NCBI GenBank assembly: GCA_016432325.1
Contig: CP066684.1
Coordinates: 785,090 to 849,089, forward strand
Direction: 5' to 3'
From: Candidatus Aenigmatarchaeota archaeon
Lineage (GTDB): Archaea; Aenigmatarchaeota; Aenigmatarchaeia; PWEA01; JACQIF01
Length of the DNA: 64,000 nucleotides
Made by a program: the position numbers and the translations under genes. How positions within the stretch are numbered: the stretch's first letter is position 1; the number at the start of each line of letters is the position of its first letter. Below, in pieces: positions 2,139 through 46,645 of this stretch. Below the pieces are notes generated by a model. The model was not told where the DNA came from. It ran no database searches and was given only the letters and a program-made list of their open reading frames with translations.

Positions 2139-4385
2139 ATGCAACTGAGAAAACTGGCAAGCACTGCCGTCGGAGCCCTATTGGCCGGCGCAACGCTCGC
2201 TGTTCCAGCGCTCGGTGCCTCTTTGGATGACCTCCCATCGCCGTTCGTTTCGGACGGTGAGGCGGACTTCACCATAGTGGTAGGCGCGGACGCGAATGCA
2301 GCCGACATAGTAGGAGCCGTAGACATCGCAGCCAGACTCGGCGGTGAGACCGTAACAACGGAATCCGCTGCGGCTGGAGAAGGCCAGGAAGACGTCGAGC
2401 TCGGAGAGGTTCTCTCCACTGAGTTCGGCACAACCCTGGACGACGACGATGTAGGCGTGCTACAAGACACATCGATAGGTTTCGACAGCGAAAACTGGGA
2501 CGTCCACGACGAGATCCGTCTCGCTTCGACAGGCCCTGCTCTTGAAACGAGCTTGAGCTCGAACGAGGAGGACTACAAGGCAGCCCCGGTGATGGAGATA
2601 ACGGCAAAAGGCGACATCGCCTACTACTACCTGTTCGACGAGGCCATAAACCTCTCGGCAAGAGTAGACAGCGACACTGAGCTCGAGATAGACTTCTTGG
2701 GCAAGCAGCTGACCATATCGTCCATAACCGATGCCGACACAATGAAGGCCCAGGTAGGAGAAGAGATTGACTTGGACGCGGGAGAGTCCGCGACCGTTGA
2801 AGGCAAGGTTGTGACGCTGATACAGACCAGCTCCAGCGACGCCAAGATAGATGTCGACGGCACCACAGGCGTAATAGCCGAAGGCAGCACCAAGACAGTC
2901 AACGGCCTTGAGATAAAGGTGGACACCATCTTCGACGACGAAGGATCCGTGGACGACTCCGCAATCCTGATAGTCGGCGAGGACGCTGAAAAGACATACG
3001 ACAACAACGACGAGTACATAGACTTCTGCAGCACGACAGGAGGAGACGACGACTGCGACGAAGACAACCCTGACTGGGTGTGGGTTCTCAACGGCCTCAC
3101 AACCCTACAGAAGGGTGACGTCACGGCAGGCGGCGGCCCGACGATAGGCATACAGAACGACTTCGTCCAGGATGCGAACACAAAGGAACCGCTTCTGGAA
3201 GGAGAGACTCTCTGGCTGCCTCACGACTTTGCCAAGATAGCCTTCGAGGACTTGGTGGCCGACGACTTCGTTAAGGTGACGATAGAGTTCAACGACGCAA
3301 TCGACGTGTCTGACGCGGACTTCGGAGGCATCAACTTCGGAACAAGCGAAGACGGCTTCCTCATAACGGCCGACGTAGAGGAGTCGCTTGTGCTGGAAGA
3401 CCTTGCATCCGGATGGAACGCAAGCTACATCACCGCTGACGTGTCGACAGAGAAGATAGCCCTCATACTGAACGAATCGGCGATGGCTATACAGGTCTTC
3501 TACTGGGACACGAACAACGACGAAGTGCTGGCCGGAAACCTTTCGATACTGCAGGGAGCAGACGCCCTTGCAGCCGGTCTCGACAGGTTCGGCTTCGTGG
3601 ACTTCAAGGACACGACTGGTTCGACAAGAATGCCGCTGGCATTGAACATCTCGAACGAATCGGCGGACAACCAGTTCTTCCTGGGGTTCATGAACAACGA
3701 CACCGAAGTGGCGGACGAAGCGACAGACGACCTGTTCATACAAATGGGAACAGCTGCCCTGATTGACAGGGGAACAGGAACAGCCGCATTCGATTCGTTG
3801 GGCCCAGTGGTGGACGATTCGGAGACAGGAGAACTGCTGTACGGCAGGAGCTCCAACTCCACGGCACCGAACACCCTGAAGGTAGGCACGCGCGACGAAG
3901 ACCAGCTGACGGCATACGGCGTCAAGGTAGGAGACCCCGACTCCAACGGAGCATCTGACAAGGTGATCCTGTGGGTTCCGGGCGACCGCCAGGAAGGCCG
4001 CATAACCATCGGCTCTAGCGCAACGGTAACCGCGGCAGGCGAGCGCAGCGGACAGATAACAACGTCTGTCTCGAAGCTCGACACCGAAACCACGGCAGAG
4101 TCTGAGGGCAACCTCATACTCGTGGGCGGACCATGCGCCAACTCGCTGGTTGCGCAGCTTGCTGACGCAGACAAGTACGGCTGGACGTGCGACGAATCGG
4201 TAGCCTTGGGCGGAAGCGGATACACCATCGAGATAGTCGAGGATGCATTCGCTGACGGCCAGGTAGCCCTGATCGTTGCAGGCCAGAACGCAGACGACAC
4301 CCGCGATGCGGCATCCCGCGTACAGACCTTCGACACAGACGGTCTGACAGGAATGTCCGTCAGGACAGGCGTCTACGCAGCCTAG
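2139..4385 (+). CDS. secreted acidic cell-surface (S-layer-like) protein
   Basis: 748 aa; N-terminal signal peptide (LASTAVGALLAGATLAVPALGAS); very D/E/T-rich; C-terminal NLILVGGPCANSLVAQLAD motif typical of archaeal S-layer domains; strong promoter and long leader. Confidence 0.55.
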   Translation: MQLRKLASTAVGALLAGATLAVPALGASLDDLPSPFVSDGEADFTIVVGADANAADIVGAVDIAARLGGETVTTESAAAGEGQEDVELGEVLSTEFGTTLDDDDVGVLQDTSIGFDSENWDVHDEIRLASTGPALETSLSSNEEDYKAAPVMEITAKGDIAYYYLFDEAINLSARVDSDTELEIDFLGKQLTISSITDADTMKAQVGEEIDLDAGESATVEGKVVTLIQTSSSDAKIDVDGTTGVIAEGSTKTVNGLEIKVDTIFDDEGSVDDSAILIVGEDAEKTYDNNDEYIDFCSTTGGDDDCDEDNPDWVWVLNGLTTLQKGDVTAGGGPTIGIQNDFVQDANTKEPLLEGETLWLPHDFAKIAFEDLVADDFVKVTIEFNDAIDVSDADFGGINFGTSEDGFLITADVEESLVLEDLASGWNASYITADVSTEKIALILNESAMAIQVFYWDTNNDEVLAGNLSILQGADALAAGLDRFGFVDFKDTTGSTRMPLALNISNESADNQFFLGFMNNDTEVADEATDDLFIQMGTAALIDRGTGTAAFDSLGPVVDDSETGELLYGRSSNSTAPNTLKVGTRDEDQLTAYGVKVGDPDSNGASDKVILWVPGDRQEGRITIGSSATVTAAGERSGQITTSVSKLDTETTAESEGNLILVGGPCANSLVAQLADADKYGWTCDESVALGGSGYTIEIVEDAFADGQVALIVAGQNADDTRDAASRVQTFDTDGLTGMSVRTGVYAA

Positions 4386-4445: not shown

Positions 4446-5825
4446 TCAGCGTGAGCCCTGTATCTCATAGACGACAACGGCTTCCGGCTTGCCCCACTGG
4501 CTGAACGAACGGAGTTTCGCGTAGTGTTCGCGCGCGTACGCGGCCGCGTATTCAGGCACGACTGGTTCGAAGTCGTATATCAGCGCGTACCTCGCGGTTA
4601 TCTCAGAAAGGTGGGCGGGATCCTTCGGGAAGACGAGGACCTCCTTGCCCGCGAGCACTTCTATCCACGGGTTGACGGCATAGACCGATTTGTTTATGGC
4701 GCGCTCGCCCCCGGGAGGATATGCGGAAGAGTAGTACTCGGATAGTATTGCCCCCTCCGGAAGCGTCTTCAGATACTCCGCGGCCTCCCTGAGCGCCTTT
4801 CCGCCGTCAAAGTCCCCTGCCACCCTGTCATTCGCGGCAGAGAGGGACAGGGCGCACATGGCGACAACGCCGAGTGCGATGAACTGCCTGTTGTTGGGAG
4901 CGAGCCTCCACCAGCTGGCCGCGACCAGCGCGAAGGCCGGGAAGAACGCGACAAGGAACCGCACCTCCTTGTGCGTCTGCAGGCTGAGCGTCAGCACTGC
5001 AACCGCGCATATGGTGAGGAACAGGCTGGGCCTCCTGCGCGTCACTTCGAGAGTGGCGCCTGCCAGCACGGCCAGCGCAAGAGGCCCGAATGTCTCTGCG
5101 GCTCTCGCCGCGTAAAAGTACCACGGATCGGGCTGCAGGCCCGTGACTATCGTAAGGCTCGTCATGAGCCCTCCGAAAGGATTGCCGTAGTATGCGGTTC
5201 CGAGCAGGAAGAGGGGGATGAGGCCGACCAGAGAGCCGGACACGAACGCAGCCGCGGAACGCGGCCCGGACTTCTTCAGCAACCACAGTGCGTATATCGG
5301 AAACAGTATGCCTCCAGGATAGCGGGCCATGAAGGCGAGGCCCGTCGCCACGCCGGCCAGGAACGGGTGCGCGATTTTCTTGTGCCCGTAAAGGAAGAGC
5401 AGGGAAAGCGCGAAGAAGAAGGTGAAGAGGGGCTCTGTCAGCGTCTTGCTCTGGAAGAAGAGGAACTGGCTGAAGGATGCGAACACGGCCGCCGCCATAA
5501 GGCCTTCTGTCCGGCCGTAGACGCGCCTCCCCGCGAGGTAGACCAGCGGTATGGTTGCGAGCCCGAACAGCAGGACGACCACGCGCGACGGGAAGACTGT
5601 ATCAATGCCCAGAGCAGCCAGCACGAGAGGCAGAAGAGGCTGGCGGAACGACTCCACGGACGTGCCAGAGTACAGGGAATAGTGGCCTTCCATCAGGCCG
5701 TGAGAGAGGCCCAGATAAACGGCTTCGTCCCACCACATGCCCTCGTTGACAAAAAGGAAGGACGTCGAGTACGCGGCAGAAAGAACAACCACGAGAAGGA
5801 AGGCGTGGTCCCAGCCCAGTTTCAT
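4446..5825 (-). CDS. GT-C fold glycosyltransferase (GT39/ArnT/PMT-like, dolichyl-phosphate-sugar dependent)
   Basis: 459 aa polytopic membrane protein; N-terminal region resembles PMT/ArnT family (first loop after TM1 with WWDEAVY). Confidence 0.55.
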   Translation of the reverse strand: MKLGWDHAFLLVVVLSAAYSTSFLFVNEGMWWDEAVYLGLSHGLMEGHYSLYSGTSVESFRQPLLPLVLAALGIDTVFPSRVVVLLFGLATIPLVYLAGRRVYGRTEGLMAAAVFASFSQFLFFQSKTLTEPLFTFFFALSLLFLYGHKKIAHPFLAGVATGLAFMARYPGGILFPIYALWLLKKSGPRSAAAFVSGSLVGLIPLFLLGTAYYGNPFGGLMTSLTIVTGLQPDPWYFYAARAAETFGPLALAVLAGATLEVTRRRPSLFLTICAVAVLTLSLQTHKEVRFLVAFFPAFALVAASWWRLAPNNRQFIALGVVAMCALSLSAANDRVAGDFDGGKALREAAEYLKTLPEGAILSEYYSSAYPPGGERAINKSVYAVNPWIEVLAGKEVLVFPKDPAHLSEITARYALIYDFEPVVPEYAAAYAREHYAKLRSFSQWGKPEAVVVYEIQGSR

Positions 5826-9221: not shown

Positions 9222-9473
9222 TTGGGTGATTGGATGCGTGTCGTCTGCCTGTTGCTTGCGCTGGTCGTTCTGGTTTCAGGTTGCCTCGCGTCTCTTGACC
9301 CGTATTGCCGTTCCCTTGCGAACGAGCTGAGCGAGGAAGGCCGGGCGTGCAAGTGCGTGGGCATAGACGAGGTCAAGACGGGCGCTGACGTGAAACCGCT
9401 CTGCAGGTGCACGTGCGACGTCGGCGGCAACATCACTACAGTGGACATCGCTCGGACAACTAATCCTTCGTAA
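9222..9473 (+). CDS. small cysteine-rich secreted/lipoprotein-like protein
   Basis: 83 aa; signal-like N-terminus ending in SGC (lipobox-like), 8 Cys. Confidence 0.4.
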   Translation: MGDWMRVVCLLLALVVLVSGCLASLDPYCRSLANELSEEGRACKCVGIDEVKTGADVKPLCRCTCDVGGNITTVDIARTTNPS

Positions 9474-10584
9474 TCTCTCTTATCACTGTCGTTGCGTACG
9501 AACCTTTCTTGAGCTCAAATCGCAGCGTTGCCGAGCCTGACGCGGTGGAGAACGCAATCTTGGGGTATATCATCGCGCTCCTTATCGCGCCTTTCTGCGC
9601 CAGCTCTGGCATCTTCTGCACAAAAAAGTCCTCTTCTGTGACGCTCTCTTCTTCGAGCACCTTTCGTACGCAATGGTCGAACTCCCCCTTGCCGAGGCTC
9701 GTCTTGTATCCCGTCACGTGGGCAGGGAAGTTGGTTATTGTCTCCTTGCCTTCGAGGAAACGGGACAGCGCGAGATTGAAGATGTATGACTGGTACGCGT
9801 CGATGAACAGTTTTGCGAGTCCGAGAGGAAGCGCGCGCAGCGCCTGTATGGACCCGCCGCCTTCCGCGAGTACGGTCAGCAGCATCCGCTCGTATGCCAT
9901 TCCTCTCGGGAAATATTCCAGCGCGCGCTTGTAGTCCTTCTCTCCGGCCAGACGCCTTCTCGCGCTCCTCGCGTCTTCGGTCTCCCCTTCAAAATCCAGA
10001 GCGAGGTAATCGAATACCGCTCCGTCAAAGTCTCCTTTGATAATCTTCCTGCCGACGCGATGCGTGACTGGACGGTTGGCTCCGAACCGTTGCGGGCCGA
10101 AGAAGTTGGGAATTCCTCTCTGTTCTATTTCGTTTATGAGCACGCGCAAACGCTCGTCCGTCTCGCGGAGGCTGATCTTTATGCCACGAATCGTGACGGC
10201 GAATCTGTTACCAGCGAGTTCTCCCAGATGGATAGGCTCGCCGATCGGTCTGTGTTCAAGAACGCGCAACCCGCTCTCCTCTATTTTCTCTATGTTGGCG
10301 CGTCCGGGCACGGAAAACCACTGTTTCGTTATCGCGTAGCGGTCTTTCATTCCTGCGTACGCCACGGCGCGCCGCTTTAGGCCGAGCGCTTTTGCGATTC
10401 TCTGCGTTGTCTCGAAGGTGTCGAGCCCGCGTTTTTCGACAAACAGCGCGGTGAACGCGTCGCCCTCGGTGAACTCGAGAGGCATCTCTTCCACTACAAA
10501 GTCTTCCATCTTCTGCTTTATCTTGCCGCCTATGCCGGGCGCACGCGTCCAGTAGAGCAGTATGCCAAAATCCTTTTCATCCAT
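9460..10584 (-). CDS. truD: tRNA pseudouridine(13) synthase TruD
   Basis: 374 aa; GxKD motif (YAGMKDRYAITKQW), N-terminal GIGGKIKQ...DFVVEE typical of TruD/Pus7 family. Confidence 0.85.
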   Translation of the reverse strand: MDEKDFGILLYWTRAPGIGGKIKQKMEDFVVEEMPLEFTEGDAFTALFVEKRGLDTFETTQRIAKALGLKRRAVAYAGMKDRYAITKQWFSVPGRANIEKIEESGLRVLEHRPIGEPIHLGELAGNRFAVTIRGIKISLRETDERLRVLINEIEQRGIPNFFGPQRFGANRPVTHRVGRKIIKGDFDGAVFDYLALDFEGETEDARSARRRLAGEKDYKRALEYFPRGMAYERMLLTVLAEGGGSIQALRALPLGLAKLFIDAYQSYIFNLALSRFLEGKETITNFPAHVTGYKTSLGKGEFDHCVRKVLEEESVTEEDFFVQKMPELAQKGAIRSAMIYPKIAFSTASGSATLRFELKKGSYATTVIREITKD

Positions 10585-22868: not shown

Positions 22869-23339
22869 ATGGAACGCACGAAAATATTATTTCCGATGCA
22901 AGGACACCGCGCCGCGCCAGAGCCTCTTGTAGAGACGCTTTCAGGAGTCTATTCAGGCCACGTCGCAGAGGTCGTTACAGCCCTTGCGCCTGCCACAATC
23001 GGCGTCAACGCTCAGGCAATGGAGGCCACGAGACTCTTCCCGGAACAGCAAGTCTTTGTCACGATAGTCCCGCCGCGCGGCGTGCCGCGTTCCCTCATCT
23101 ACAAGGCCCAGTACGCTGTGCAACCGATACTCGTGCCTGAGAAGCTTCTGACAGAGGAGGACAGGAAACTGCTGCAACTCTACGCGCTGTCCTACGGCTA
23201 CGGCGTCCTTCTGCCGAGCGATCCGGTTTTTGGGCGCGTCAAGAACGGCGACGAAGTGATAATCAACACGCATGTCGACGAGGCGGCTTGGGGCGTGGCG
23301 CGCGTGCTGAAGGACCATTTCAAGAACCCGTGGACCTGA
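22869..23339 (+). CDS. hypothetical protein
   Basis: Track ORF trimmed to ATG at 22869 (MERTKILF); convergent with rtcA, 3' ends overlap about 20 nt. Confidence 0.35.
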   Translation: MERTKILFPMQGHRAAPEPLVETLSGVYSGHVAEVVTALAPATIGVNAQAMEATRLFPEQQVFVTIVPPRGVPRSLIYKAQYAVQPILVPEKLLTEEDRKLLQLYALSYGYGVLLPSDPVFGRVKNGDEVIINTHVDEAAWGVARVLKDHFKNPWT

Positions 23340-24363
23340 CCGTAGTTCCGTCCAGCTCGAGCCTCTTTCCAAGGAACGCTTCGATGACCACGATGTTCGT
23401 GCGCACGTGATTCGTGACTTCTTGCAGATGTGCCTGACCGCCGGACAAGGCGAGGAACGGGAGAATCATGTCAGAGGTCTGCCTGTCCGTTATGCATCCC
23501 GAGTCCATCGCTTTCAGAAGCTTTTCCGCGGCGCTCTTGCCCACGTCTTCTGCGCTCACGCTTTTTTCGCCAATCGCGTCCCCGCCGAGGACAGTGTGCT
23601 CGTACTCTGCGTAACAAACGACACCGGAGCCCGGGTTGTCTGATAGTTCGTACGAAACCTCGACTGTCGTGTCACGGCCTAGCGGTTTGAGCGCCTGTGC
23701 GGCTGCCGCGGCCTGCCTCTCCGCGACGCGCGCCCGCTTCAGTTCTGTCGAGGCCACGGAATAGACGTGTACTCCACGAATGAAACCGCGGTCTGTGAAC
23801 GAGACGGGTTTCCCGCGAGACATCGCCAAGAGCGGCGACGCGCCTTCCGGGGGATGCAGGACGAACGTCACGTCCGCGCCTCCCTTCGGATAAAAGCCTT
23901 CGCGTTTGACATCGAACTCTGTCCTGTAGCCGAACCGCTTGACAACAGGCAGGAAGACCCGCGTTATGTAATCCACGGGCGGGGCCCACTTGCCGTACGT
24001 CGCTCCGCCGCGGACGTGCACGTGTAACGGTTCTTTCAAAACGTACGGAACCAGCTGCAGTGTTTGGAATACGAGACCGACAGAACCGGCTGTCCCTATC
24101 TCAACATCCAGCGCGTCGCGCGTTATCTTTTCCGGAGCGAACGTCACTTCTGTGCTTCCAAGTTTTGCGCCAGTAACTTCCGCGTCGCACAGTAGCGCTA
24201 TGGCTTTGAGCGCCTCGAGGTGCTGCGTCTTGAGTCCGCCCACTTCGCGGCCGCCTCTGATGTTCGTCAGCCTGAACGGCGTCTTCGTTACGACCGACAG
24301 TCCTAACGCAGTACGGAGAATCTGCCCGCCGCCGGAAGAGCCGTCGAGTGAGATCATATACAA
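23320..24363 (-). CDS. rtcA: RNA 3'-terminal phosphate cyclase
   Basis: LDGSSGGGQILRTALGLS N-terminal motif and overall length typical of RtcA. Confidence 0.85.
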   Translation of the reverse strand: MYMISLDGSSGGGQILRTALGLSVVTKTPFRLTNIRGGREVGGLKTQHLEALKAIALLCDAEVTGAKLGSTEVTFAPEKITRDALDVEIGTAGSVGLVFQTLQLVPYVLKEPLHVHVRGGATYGKWAPPVDYITRVFLPVVKRFGYRTEFDVKREGFYPKGGADVTFVLHPPEGASPLLAMSRGKPVSFTDRGFIRGVHVYSVASTELKRARVAERQAAAAAQALKPLGRDTTVEVSYELSDNPGSGVVCYAEYEHTVLGGDAIGEKSVSAEDVGKSAAEKLLKAMDSGCITDRQTSDMILPFLALSGGQAHLQEVTNHVRTNIVVIEAFLGKRLELDGTTVRSTGS

Positions 24364-26217: not shown

Positions 26218-27501
26218 CTAGACGTCAATCGTATCCCCGACGGCAGGCGCGACGGCGTCAAAGCCGTGCTCTTCCTTGAGCGCCGCGGCGAACTTCTTGG
26301 TGTCCTCCCCGTGGATGCAGACGACGCGTTCCGGATTCAACGTTTTGATGTAGTTCACGAGTTCGCTCCTGCCCGCGTGCGCAGAGAAGTCGAGCTTTTC
26401 AAACGGAACCTTGAGCTTGAACTCCTTCTTCTCCGTCTTGTAGACGCCTGTCTCGAGAAGCGCTTTTCCCGCGGAGCCTTCGGCCTGGAAGCCCGTCATT
26501 GCCAGATACGAGTTTCTGTCATCCTTCAGGTGTTCGAGGTAATGAGCGACAGGACCGCCGTTGAGCATGCCGGAAGTCGTGATGATTACGCACGGATGCT
26601 TCTTCTTGAGAATCTTCTCGCGCGCTTGGTTGTTCGTCACTTTCTTTGCTCTGGCGAACACGCGCTGGAGCATCTGCGGGTATCTCAGGAACTCCGAGTA
26701 GCGCAGGGCGATGGCCGTAGCGTCGCGGCACATGCCGTCCACGTATATCGGCACGTCGATGCCGTACTTTTCCAGCACGAGCAAGAGTTCCTGTGCGCGG
26801 CCGACTGCGAACGAAGAGACCAGCGCGACGCCGTCATTGTTCACGGCTTCGCGTATGCGCTTTATCAGGTGCTTCTCTGTCTCGTCGCGGTTCGGATGCT
26901 CTTTCGTTCCGTAGGTGGACTCTATTATCAGCGTCTTCACGTCCTCGCGCACCGGACTCAGGCCGTTCAGGAGCTCTGTCTTTTCGACCTTCATGTCGCC
27001 TGTGTAGACCACGACTCCTTTTCCTGTGTCTATCACGGCCTGCCCCGAGCCCGGGATGTGGCCCGCGTCGTAGAACATCACCTGCGAGTTGCCTATCTCG
27101 AACTGCTGGCCGTAGGCGACGCGAAACGCGTTGGCGTACATCGTGGAGACGTCCTTGGAGAAATACCCGATGCCGTGGCCCTTGATTTTGGCGAGCTTGA
27201 GGCTGTCCTTCAAAAGCAGGTCCATCAGGTCGAGAGTGGTCGCGGACGCATGCACCGGCCCTCGATAGCCGCGGTTGTAGAGAGAAGGCACGAAACCGCC
27301 GTGGTCCAGGTGGGCGTGCGAGACTACGACGCCGTCGAGTTTAACGGACGCCGCCATCGGGAACGCGGGCTGGTCAACGCCCTCCGCGCCTGTGACGACC
27401 TTTATTCCGTAGTCCATCAATATGCGTTCGCTTCCTGTGTCCAGCACGAATCCGGAACGGCCGACCTCTTGGGCGGCGCCGAGGCATTGTAACTTCATCA
27501 T
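26218..27501 (-). CDS. metallo-beta-lactamase fold beta-CASP ribonuclease (aCPSF2/RNase J-like)
   Basis: HAHLDHGG zinc-binding motif, beta-CASP region, C-terminal IHGE; TATA (TATATAAG on minus) about 30 nt upstream of start at 27501. Confidence 0.7.
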   Translation of the reverse strand: MMKLQCLGAAQEVGRSGFVLDTGSERILMDYGIKVVTGAEGVDQPAFPMAASVKLDGVVVSHAHLDHGGFVPSLYNRGYRGPVHASATTLDLMDLLLKDSLKLAKIKGHGIGYFSKDVSTMYANAFRVAYGQQFEIGNSQVMFYDAGHIPGSGQAVIDTGKGVVVYTGDMKVEKTELLNGLSPVREDVKTLIIESTYGTKEHPNRDETEKHLIKRIREAVNNDGVALVSSFAVGRAQELLLVLEKYGIDVPIYVDGMCRDATAIALRYSEFLRYPQMLQRVFARAKKVTNNQAREKILKKKHPCVIITTSGMLNGGPVAHYLEHLKDDRNSYLAMTGFQAEGSAGKALLETGVYKTEKKEFKLKVPFEKLDFSAHAGRSELVNYIKTLNPERVVCIHGEDTKKFAAALKEEHGFDAVAPAVGDTIDV

Positions 27502-27602
27502 CAAAATCCTGTGCGACGTTTCCCACAAGCGCTTATATAGCTTCTTCTTGAAGTCTTCTTCGGTGTCCCTGATGAGCAACGGCCTTTACGAGAAACGTCT
27601 TT

Positions 27603-38240: not shown

Positions 38241-38891
38241 ATGAAGCAGCTTTTTGACGGAGTCTACGAAAAGAATGGCACGCTTCTCACGCTCAACGCG
38301 CGGCCGGGCCAGCGCGCCTATACGGAGAAACTCGTGAACGTCGGGAACAAGGAGTACAGAGAGTGGATTCCTTCCAAGTCGAAGCTCGGCGCGGCGATAA
38401 AAAACGGCCTGAAGACGTTTCCTTTCACGCGCGCTAGCGCCGTACTCTATCTCGGCTCTTCCACAGGCACGACGCCGTCCCACATCTCCGATATCGTCAC
38501 GGACGGGACTGTTTTCTGCGTTGAATTCGCGGAGCGCGTCATGCGCGAATTCCTGCATTTGGCCGAGCAGCGCAAGAACCTGGTCCCGATTCTGGCCGAC
38601 GCCCGCAAGCCTCAGGACTATGCGTGGGTCGGTTCCGTGGACGTCGTCTACGAGGACGTGGCGCAGCCGGACCTTGTGGAGATAGGAATCAGAAACGCCG
38701 AACGTTTCCTGAAGGACGGCGGTTGCCTGATGGTAGCGATAAAGTCGCAGAGCATCGACGTCACCGAAAAGCCGGGCGTTACGTACAAGGCGTGCGAACG
38801 CAAGCTGAGGGACGCAGGCTACAAGGTCGTTGAGACGATTATTCTGGAGCCGTACGAGAAGGACCATGCGATGATTGTGGCGAGGAAATGA
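38241..38891 (+). CDS. flpA: fibrillarin-like rRNA/tRNA 2'-O-methyltransferase
   Basis: 216 aa; YREW...VLYLGSSTGTT.SHISDIV...DVAQPD...FLKDGG...DVTE...EPYEKDHAMIV typical of archaeal fibrillarin. Confidence 0.85.
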   Translation: MKQLFDGVYEKNGTLLTLNARPGQRAYTEKLVNVGNKEYREWIPSKSKLGAAIKNGLKTFPFTRASAVLYLGSSTGTTPSHISDIVTDGTVFCVEFAERVMREFLHLAEQRKNLVPILADARKPQDYAWVGSVDVVYEDVAQPDLVEIGIRNAERFLKDGGCLMVAIKSQSIDVTEKPGVTYKACERKLRDAGYKVVETIILEPYEKDHAMIVARK

Positions 38892-38892
38892 T

Positions 38893-38998
38893 TGGTAGCG
38901 GGGGCACGATTTGAACGTGCGACCTCAGGGTTATGAGCCTTTAGCCAGCGTGCAAGAAGCACGTTGTCTGCGAGCACTCCAGGCTGCTCCACCCCGCT
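38893..38998 (-). tRNA. initiator tRNA-Met (CAU) with an intron in the anticodon stem
   Basis: Hand-folded: AGCGGGG/CCCCGCT acceptor with A1:U72, anticodon loop CUCAUAA, GG/CC anticodon-stem pairs, T-arm GCACG-UUCAAAU-CGUGC, encoded CCA; approx 28-nt insert between positions 29 and 30; TATA about 28 nt upstream. Confidence 0.65.
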
Positions 38999-39021: not shown

Positions 39022-39624
39022 CTATTTAACCGTGTCGAACGCCCGCATCTCTGAAATCTCCAGAGCCAGCTCCGTTGTCGGCGCGGCGTCGGCTTTCGCG
39101 GGGCGGAACTTTCTTACGGCCAGTCTGAGCGCTTCGTCAGGACCAGTGTAGCCGCCGAAGCGCAACTGCATCTCCATAATCGGTTTGGCGGCCGGTGTGA
39201 ACGGTATGCCGACGCTTTTCAGCGTGTGGTATATCTCATCGAGGGTTTTAGGTTCGATTTCTGTAGCGTTGTAAGATGGCCTGAAGCCTGTCGCGCCTCT
39301 CTTATTGTAGACGTCCCACTGGTGGAACTTGTACTCGTATGCCTTGTCGTGCAGCTCTCCGGGCATGCCCTCGTGCTTCTCGGCCCGCGGGTCTTTCTCC
39401 ACGCATTCGATGGGCCCGTCTTCCGCGATGGATAATCTCTTCGCGCATTTGTAGACTTTGCTCTGCGATGCATCGAAGGCGCGGAGCCTGCGGCTGTTGG
39501 CTATGAAGGGAAGGCTCGGTCTCAGCTTCAGGCCATGGAACTCGTCTATCGTATCAAGAAGCGGGGTATCCAGAGGGTCAGCGATGTCTATCGGCTTGCG
39601 CGGACTGGTTGCCATGCGTTGCAC
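39022..39624 (-). CDS. hypothetical protein
   Basis: 200 aa; no family recognised. Confidence 0.4.
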   Translation of the reverse strand: MQRMATSPRKPIDIADPLDTPLLDTIDEFHGLKLRPSLPFIANSRRLRAFDASQSKVYKCAKRLSIAEDGPIECVEKDPRAEKHEGMPGELHDKAYEYKFHQWDVYNKRGATGFRPSYNATEIEPKTLDEIYHTLKSVGIPFTPAAKPIMEMQLRFGGYTGPDEALRLAVRKFRPAKADAAPTTELALEISEMRAFDTVK

Positions 39625-44863: not shown

Positions 44864-44973
44864 GGACCCGTAGCTCAGGTGGTTAGAGCGCTGCTCTGAT
44901 AGTTGGACATCGATACGTTGATGTCCTTTTGGTCAGGCAGAGGCCCGGAGTTCAAATCTCCGCGGGTCCACCA
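44864..44973 (+). tRNA. tRNA-Ile (GAU) with canonical 33-nt intron after position 37
   Basis: Hand-folded: acceptor GGACCCG/CGGGUCC, D-arm GCUC-AGGUGGUUA-GAGC, anticodon stem CUGCU/GGCAG, loop CUGAUA|intron|A, T-arm CGGAG-UUCAAAU-CUCCG, encoded CCA; TATA (TTTTTATA) about 25 nt upstream. Confidence 0.75.
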
Positions 44974-46569: not shown

Positions 46570-46645
46570 GCCGCCATAGCTCAGCTAGTAGAGCACCTGA
46601 CTTGTAATCAGGGGGTCGAGGGGGCAGAGCCCTCTGGCGGCTCCA
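46570..46645 (+). tRNA. tRNA-Thr (UGU), intronless, with non-canonical D-loop and T-loop
   Basis: Hand-folded: perfect cloverleaf with acceptor GCCGCCA/UGGCGGC, anticodon loop CUUGUAA, encoded CCA, TATA about 27 nt upstream; D-loop AGCUAGUA lacks GG, T-loop GGCAGAG replaces the usual UUCRAAU. Confidence 0.55.

Follow-up and report, generated by a model that had tools for sequence, protein, structure and literature searches.

Archaeal tRNA genes can be interrupted by non-canonical BHB introns, which were reportedly described by Marck and Grosjean in 2003 and by Sugahara et al. in 2008. The canonical intron at 37/38 lies one nucleotide 3' of the anticodon and leaves the 5-bp anticodon stem intact. 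In a BHB, cleavage falls after the second nucleotide of each bulge. The BHB rule specifies two 3-nt bulges that are separated by a 4-bp helix, with the splice sites inside the bulges (PMC4090602). EndA cleavage followed by RtcB ligation is the established archaeal pathway (PMC4090602; PMC3239211), and among DPANN, more frequent disruption of tRNA genes is reported in association with epsilon2 enzymes and with alpha4 enzymes that have an L3 loop (PMC3239211; PMC5829648). Published archaeal tRNA introns measure 11-129 nt, and the known non-canonical sites include 20/21, 22/23, 25/26, 29/30 and 30/31 (PMC4090602). A count in 217 archaeal genomes arrived at 673 non-canonical introns (PMC8450103), and such introns have been described mainly in Crenarchaeota/Thermoproteales, Thaumarchaeota, Nanoarchaeota and ARMAN (PMC4090602).

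Initiator tRNA genes are disrupted in other ways as well. The tRNA-iMet gene of Nanoarchaeum equitans is split (PMC2237900), that of Thermofilum pendens is permuted and carries a canonical intron (PMC3218864), and tRNA-Lys(CUU) of N. equitans and Staphylothermus is split and joined at 30/31 (PMC3218864). A literature search, with the classical surveys (Marck & Grosjean 2003, Sugahara 2007) outside its reach, turned up no publication on tRNA introns of Aenigmatarchaeota.

The locus studied here lies in a 64-kb window, the whole stretch of DNA that was analysed, from a Candidatus Aenigmatarchaeota (DPANN) archaeon. It is very probably a functional initiator tRNA-Met gene with a single intron that would be spliced via a BHB. 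Like the known non-canonical BHB introns, this one is short (28 nt), has two 3-nt bulges, a 4-position helix and the helices h and h', and sits at a listed site (29/30); it differs from them by its Aenigmatarchaeota host and by one C.U mismatch in the central helix. As in N. equitans and T. pendens, an essential, usually single-copy initiator is disrupted and would need EndA to process it via a BHB. Here, however, the interruption is a cis intron between colinear exons, and the break is at 29/30 instead of 37/38 (split gene) or 59/60 (permuted gene). The split tRNA-Lys(CUU) is likewise broken within the 5' strand of its anticodon stem, at a point shifted by one nucleotide, with a BHB across the junction, but it is a different isoacceptor whose halves come from two loci and are joined by trans-splicing. 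The evidence is best accounted for by an ordinary archaeal intron that proteins would splice out. The gene thus adds an Aenigmatarchaeota example to a known intron type whose mechanism is standard, and no new mechanism is revealed. Documented stem-interrupting, non-canonical BHB introns are extended to an essential tRNA in this phylum, which is a modest biological point; the most interesting by-product is the variation in intron position among the orthologous initiator genes of the clade.

Gene anatomy and initiator identity

The tRNA-iMet(CAU) gene spans 38893..38998 on the minus strand of the window. It is 106 nt long, including the encoded CCA at 38895..38893, and its spliced form is called as tRNA-Met by ARAGORN. 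Read along the minus strand from 38998, it consists of AGCGGGGTGGAGCAGCCTGGAGTGCTCGCAG / ACAACGTGCTTCTTGCACGCTGGCTAAA / GGCTCATAACCCTGAGGTCGCACGTTCAAATCGTGCCCCCGCTACCA. The 5' exon (AGCGGGGTGGAGCAGCCTGGAGTGCTCGCAG, 38968..38998) covers standard positions 1-29 and contains A1, A11:U24 and the D-arm strands GAGC/GCTC. The intron (ACAACGTGCTTCTTGCACGCTGGCTAAA, 38940..38967) inserts 28 nt between positions 29 and 30, and the 3' exon (GGCTCATAACCCTG...CCCCGCTACCA, 38893..38939) supplies positions 30-76 with the anticodon CAT at 38935..38933. Removal of these 28 nt is the sole deletion that restores the cloverleaf. The resulting 78-nt tRNA-Met(cat) is a perfect cloverleaf in ARAGORN, and this cloverleaf is also the minimum-energy fold of the spliced form (-34.5 kcal/mol, ViennaRNA). 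The predicted junction reads ...GCUCGCAG|GGCUCAUAACCC; in a mature tRNA, CAGGGCUCAUAACCCUG would correspond to the 29/30 placement and CAGACCUCAUAACCCUG to a placement in the loop. Over 1760 nt that include the entire gene and intron, the window agrees at 100% identity with an independent Logan assembly of run SRR12113430, so the insert is no artefact of MAG assembly.

The gene carries A1:U72, A11:U24 (purine 11:pyrimidine 24), G29-G31:C39-C41 and a CUCAUAA loop. The combination of A1:U72, purine 11:pyrimidine 24 and three consecutive G:C pairs at 29-31:39-41 is the established initiator signature. A reading of the DNA made beforehand from its letters alone (the sequence-only reading) had named A1:U72, the G/C pairs of the anticodon stem and the CUCAUAA loop as archaeal initiator hallmarks. 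All of them can be read directly from the gene, whose spliced form is a tRNA-Met(CAU). That reading had also placed an insert of about 28 nt between positions 29 and 30, and not at 37/38, of a gene at 38893-38998. The coordinates are correct, with the gene on the minus strand, and the insert is exactly 28 nt long. An exhaustive scan over insertion points and D-loop lengths returned a single top-scoring placement, namely a 28-nt intron directly after standard position 29, with which the anticodon stem pairs at 5/5 positions.

Two other readings concern what the tRNA is and where the insert lies. Were the gene an elongator tRNA-Met or a tRNA-Ile2 (CAU, modified to agmatidine) with a 29/30 intron, it would have the same anticodon, since CAU is common to all three species, and initiator identity is assigned from sequence. 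Against this, the complete signature of A1:U72, purine 11:pyrimidine 24 and GGG:CCC is present, and the exons agree with AGCGGGR...GGCTCATAACCC, the 5' end shared by nearly all archaeal initiators and the pattern by which homologues were retrieved; we regard an elongator or Ile2 identity as extremely unlikely. The insert could instead be a canonical 37/38 intron whose 29/30 placement is an artefact of alignment, and ARAGORN in intron mode (-i), which places introns in the anticodon loop only, does give a 28-nt anticodon-loop intron. This forced solution reduces the anticodon stem to C-G, A-U, G-C, A.C and C.C, so that two pairs and the initiator GGG:CCC signature are lost. Because the scan has one best solution and the loop placement is mismatched, the 29/30 position is exact and the 37/38 alternative is rejected; the BHB bulges, too, sit at 29/30, and a canonical intron has a next to negligible probability. 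Other kinds of interrupted gene were considered alongside the cis intron at 29/30. A split or permuted gene was ruled out, as both exons lie side by side and in their normal order in a stretch of 106 nt. Self-splicing introns of group I or group II have a ribozyme core of hundreds of nucleotides; the insert is 28 nt long, and the region has no Rfam match even at E<=10.

Splice motif and proposed pathway

The sequence-only reading had suggested folding the precursor for a BHB as a check, and the outcome is positive, with a 3-4-3 geometry at 29/30. All elements of the motif lie on the minus strand. The outer helix h joins the two exons through G22-C32 and C23-G31. In the central helix, exon nucleotides 24-27 (TCGC, 38970..38973) face intron nucleotides 23-26 (GCTA, 38942..38945; -6..-3 from the intron end) as U24-A, C25.U, G26-C and C27-G, so that 3/4 positions are paired. 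The bulge at the 5' splice site comprises A28 G29|A(intron 1) at 38967..38969, with predicted cleavage after G29 (38968), and that at the 3' splice site comprises A A|G30 at 38939..38941, with predicted cleavage before G30 (38939). These two 3-nt bulges are on opposite strands and exactly 4 positions apart. The intron hairpin h' (38946..38966) is formed by CAACGTGC, a TTCTT loop and GCACGCTG and pairs at 7/8 positions: C-G, A-U and an A.C mismatch are followed by CGUGC/GCACG, closed by UUCUU. The predicted cuts G29|A and A|G30 yield the exact mature 78-nt cloverleaf. The predicted motif is slightly relaxed, given its C.U mismatch in the central helix. A BHB of equal quality arose in shuffled introns at a frequency of about 2e-4 (n=200,000).

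The BHB uses nucleotides 22-25, which are the 3' strand of the D stem, and the BHB and the D arm are thus mutually exclusive. The minimum-energy fold predicted for the precursor keeps the D arm. Constraining the precursor to the BHB gives -30.6 kcal/mol versus -42.9 kcal/mol without the constraint, a predicted stability difference of about 12 kcal/mol. Since the BHB conformer lies above the minimum-energy fold, it would need protein binding or co-transcriptional folding.

From these features, we infer transcription, cleavage and ligation of the precursor and the type of enzyme involved. Transcription would be driven by a TATA-box promoter some 25-30 nt ahead of the gene. Precursor nucleotides 22-27 (the 3' strand of the D stem and positions 26-27) would then leave the D arm and pair with both the intron's 3' end and nucleotides 31-32, forming hBHBh'. 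In each bulge, EndA would cleave behind the second nucleotide. Once G29 and G30 had been joined by an RtcB-type ligase, the 78-nt product would regain the cloverleaf, its anticodon stem carrying the GGG:CCC pairs of an initiator.

The putative promoter is a TATA-like box (TTAAATAG, 39022..39029, minus strand) at -31..-24 from the mature 5' end; it shares bases with the stop codon of the upstream ORF 39022..39624. Three relatives (L001, L002 and L004) have a TTTAAATAG box at the same distance, and each of the window's two other tRNAs has a box of this type in front of it. On account of this conserved position and of the boxes at the other tRNAs, the box probably acts in the expression of the initiator gene.

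A broad-specificity EndA would be expected, since the site is non-canonical and the central helix mismatched. By implication, the splicing endonuclease of the lineage would tolerate sites away from the canonical position as well as a mismatched central helix. Endonucleases of broad specificity have been described in other DPANN; the host described here is likewise a DPANN archaeon with non-canonical and multiple introns, and an enzyme of this kind (alpha4+L3, alpha-beta or epsilon2) is the one anticipated. Neither EndA nor RtcB was detected in the 64-kb window, about 7% of the 875-kb contig, by Pfam searches of about 45 ORFs and by tblastn with a M. jannaschii EndA query. Other RNA-processing genes are present in the window, namely RtcA (23320..24363, minus strand), TruD and a beta-CASP RNase (with further coordinates 9460..10584 and 26218..27579, both on the minus strand), as are genes for TyrRS, SerRS and PTH2. 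A Nanohaloarchaea MAG (L032) encodes an EndA homologue (2659..3189, minus strand; 37% identical to the M. jannaschii enzyme across 177 aa) about 3 kb from an initiator tRNA gene with a D-arm intron.

Initiator introns in other archaea and in syntenic relatives

One restrictive pattern, AGCGGGRTGGRGYAGNCNGG-N{20,50}-GGCTCATAACCC, was used to scan the GTDB species representatives. It retrieved 41 initiator tRNA loci with an intron upstream of position 30, and in 12 of them the intron (13-38 nt) is exactly at 29/30. These 12 loci belong to three Aenigmatarchaeota, one Woesearchaeota, two unclassified archaea, five Bathyarchaeia and one Thermoproteota MAG 'Kor1' (Korarchaeia-like), and all 12 have a 3-4-3 BHB with a fully paired central helix. 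In the remaining 29 of 41, mostly Thermoplasmata plus further DPANN, the intron lies upstream of an intact anticodon stem. Predicted 29/30 introns of initiator genes are thus seen repeatedly in both DPANN and TACK lineages. The sequence-only reading had called introns in initiator tRNAs uncommon. That claim is tempered by these 41 loci, 12 of them at 29/30, and by the published split and permuted initiator genes (PMC2237900, PMC3218864). Its suggested comparison with related genomes, on the other hand, bears out the site: in total, 15 other fetched loci (13 tabulated genes plus L047 and L048) have a 29/30 intron with the same BHB geometry, with compensatory changes.

Bulge sequences and the central helix were compared in 14 tabulated genes, the window gene and 13 other initiator genes. 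The 13 others share the BHB geometry of the window gene, their central helix is fully paired, and their introns (13-38 nt) are unrelated in sequence; the C25.U mismatch occurs in the window gene only. The 5' bulge is NG|A in 14/14. The 3' bulge has 3 nt and ends in |G30 in 14/14, as AN|G in 13 and as CT|G in L019. For a covariation test, 12 of the 29/30 genes were placed in a fixed-column alignment, in which 91.7% of the cells are paired versus 28-43% when the 3' partners are slid; the central helix reaches 97.9%. Both sides change in four pairs, at 24:i-3 (U-A/C-G), at 27:i-6 (C-G/U-A) and in h'. None of 500 shuffles reached the observed covariation score.

A metagenome scan with a clade-specific pattern found three loci, too few to be included in the covariation analysis, and two of the three show a second intron. 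These two, L047 (2959.., plus strand) and L048 (minus strand), are JGI metagenome contigs with initiator genes that combine the 29/30 intron with a T-arm intron, at about 59/60 in L047 and at about 53/54 in L048.

Thermoplasmata are usually described as intron-poor. Many Thermoplasmata species representatives, and the Methanobacteriota MAG L043, have a 28-35-nt intron in the D-loop region of the initiator gene. The loci with an intron in this region are L006, L007, L009-L012, L015, L017, L020-L022, L025, L033-L035, L038, L039 and L043-L045, and most introns of the Thermoplasmata type share a conserved ...CCTGAAAT tail. The Thermoplasmata D-loop-region intron appears to be conserved at the level of the lineage.

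Closer relatives of the window genome could be recognized by synteny. The tRNA-iMet gene adjoins a fibrillarin gene (38241..38891, plus strand), whose product is 100% identical to a protein from a Candidatus Aenigmatarchaeota MAG, encoded on an 875-kb contig. Relatives' contigs that encode fibrillarins 76-82% identical to that of the window share the order fibrillarin–iMet–PALP. L004 has a 24-nt intron at the same 29/30 site, unrelated in sequence and with a fully paired central helix. L001 (the same record as L023) has a 37-nt D-loop intron and an intact anticodon stem. L002 combines a 33-nt D-loop intron with a 236-nt intron at 37/38, which exceeds the quoted 11-129 nt range of archaeal tRNA introns, and its initiator gene (about 4631..4977, minus strand) is 347 nt long. 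The contig of L005 breaks off, and non-tRNA sequence precedes its 3' T-arm; this gene possibly carries a T-loop intron (59/60 suspected). Each of the four complete syntenic orthologues yields a spliced product of 78 nt, in which the cloverleaf is preserved by compensatory changes to the acceptor, anticodon and T stems. L002 and L004 have identical mature tRNAs with different intron layouts.

Across the five syntenic orthologues, including the window gene, the 29/30 intron occurs in two, and the two are unrelated in sequence. Together with the D-loop, 37/38 and possibly T-loop (59/60 suspected) introns of the relatives, the clade uses several of the known intron hot spots, and its orthologous initiator genes are a compact example of changing intron position. 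This variation resembles the intron turnover described for Thermoproteales. We raise tentatively, and with more doubt than conviction, that the Aenigmatarchaeota clade around the window genome is a comparable hot spot of rapid tRNA-intron turnover. If so, the initiator gene would be a tractable natural series on the gain, loss and movement of BHB introns, and this series could address whether DPANN endonucleases with an L3 loop license intron movement.

The orthologues also bear on whether the gene works at all. A 28-nt insertion could have broken the anticodon stem of a now disabled initiator pseudogene and stay in the transcript, while a second, intact copy serves the cell. The C.U mismatch in the central helix and a BHB conformer that is not the predicted minimum-energy fold fit such a loss of function, and the view is limited to a 64-kb window of the genome. 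The exons are nevertheless flawless, and relatives keep all stems via compensatory changes. The insert itself has a BHB with the correct 3-4-3 spacing, which is rare among shuffled introns, and the same site and geometry occur in the other fetched loci. The promoter box is conserved, and archaeal genomes usually have a single initiator tRNA gene. Decay into a pseudogene is therefore very unlikely, and we favor a functional gene whose intron is removed as proposed above.

Detection by standard tools and neighborhood of the gene

Default ARAGORN calls no tRNA anywhere in the 64-kb window, the initiator gene included, and the Rfam tRNA model at its gathering threshold misses the initiator gene as well. 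The only initiator tRNA gene visible in the window thus escapes both. In a permissive search, the unspliced gene gave a partial match of 13.5 bits to its 3' part (gathering score 29), a low score that is expected because the insert interrupts the stem. Since the two standard tools miss the gene, genomes of this lineage can appear to be without an initiator tRNA if annotation does not rely on BHB-aware tools. Scanning the entire window with Rfam below threshold, in search of other hidden tRNAs, revealed nothing new.

At the gathering threshold, Rfam reports two tRNAs only in the window, a tRNA-Ile (matched over 44864..44970) and a tRNA with the anticodon TGT. The tRNA-Ile(GAT) gene (44864..44973, plus strand) has a canonical 37/38 intron of 33-34 nt that contains a long hairpin, and at least two of the three tRNA genes of the window are therefore interrupted. 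Transposition of an intron within the window was checked by comparing the initiator intron with that of tRNA-Ile; there is no meaningful similarity (best local score 5).

The initiator intron was also inspected for a C/D-box guide, which was rejected given that it has no RUGAUGA/CUGA boxes. A weak sR23 match (12.5 bits, E=1.3) falls within the fibrillarin gene, on the other strand, and is attributed to chance. Directly upstream of the tRNA and on the same strand, the ORF at 39022..39624 (minus strand) encodes a 200-aa protein with no Pfam match. It is absent from this position in L001, and in L004 a gene for an HD-domain protein is found between fibrillarin and the tRNA.

The third tRNA gene (46570..46642, plus strand), with the Thr anticodon TGT, scores 56 bits with Rfam and is not called by ARAGORN. 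Its D-loop (AGCTAGTA) has no G18G19, and its T-loop reads GGCAGAG instead of TTCRANY. With both loops deviating, this tRNA lacks both partners of the usual tertiary contact between D-loop and T-loop.
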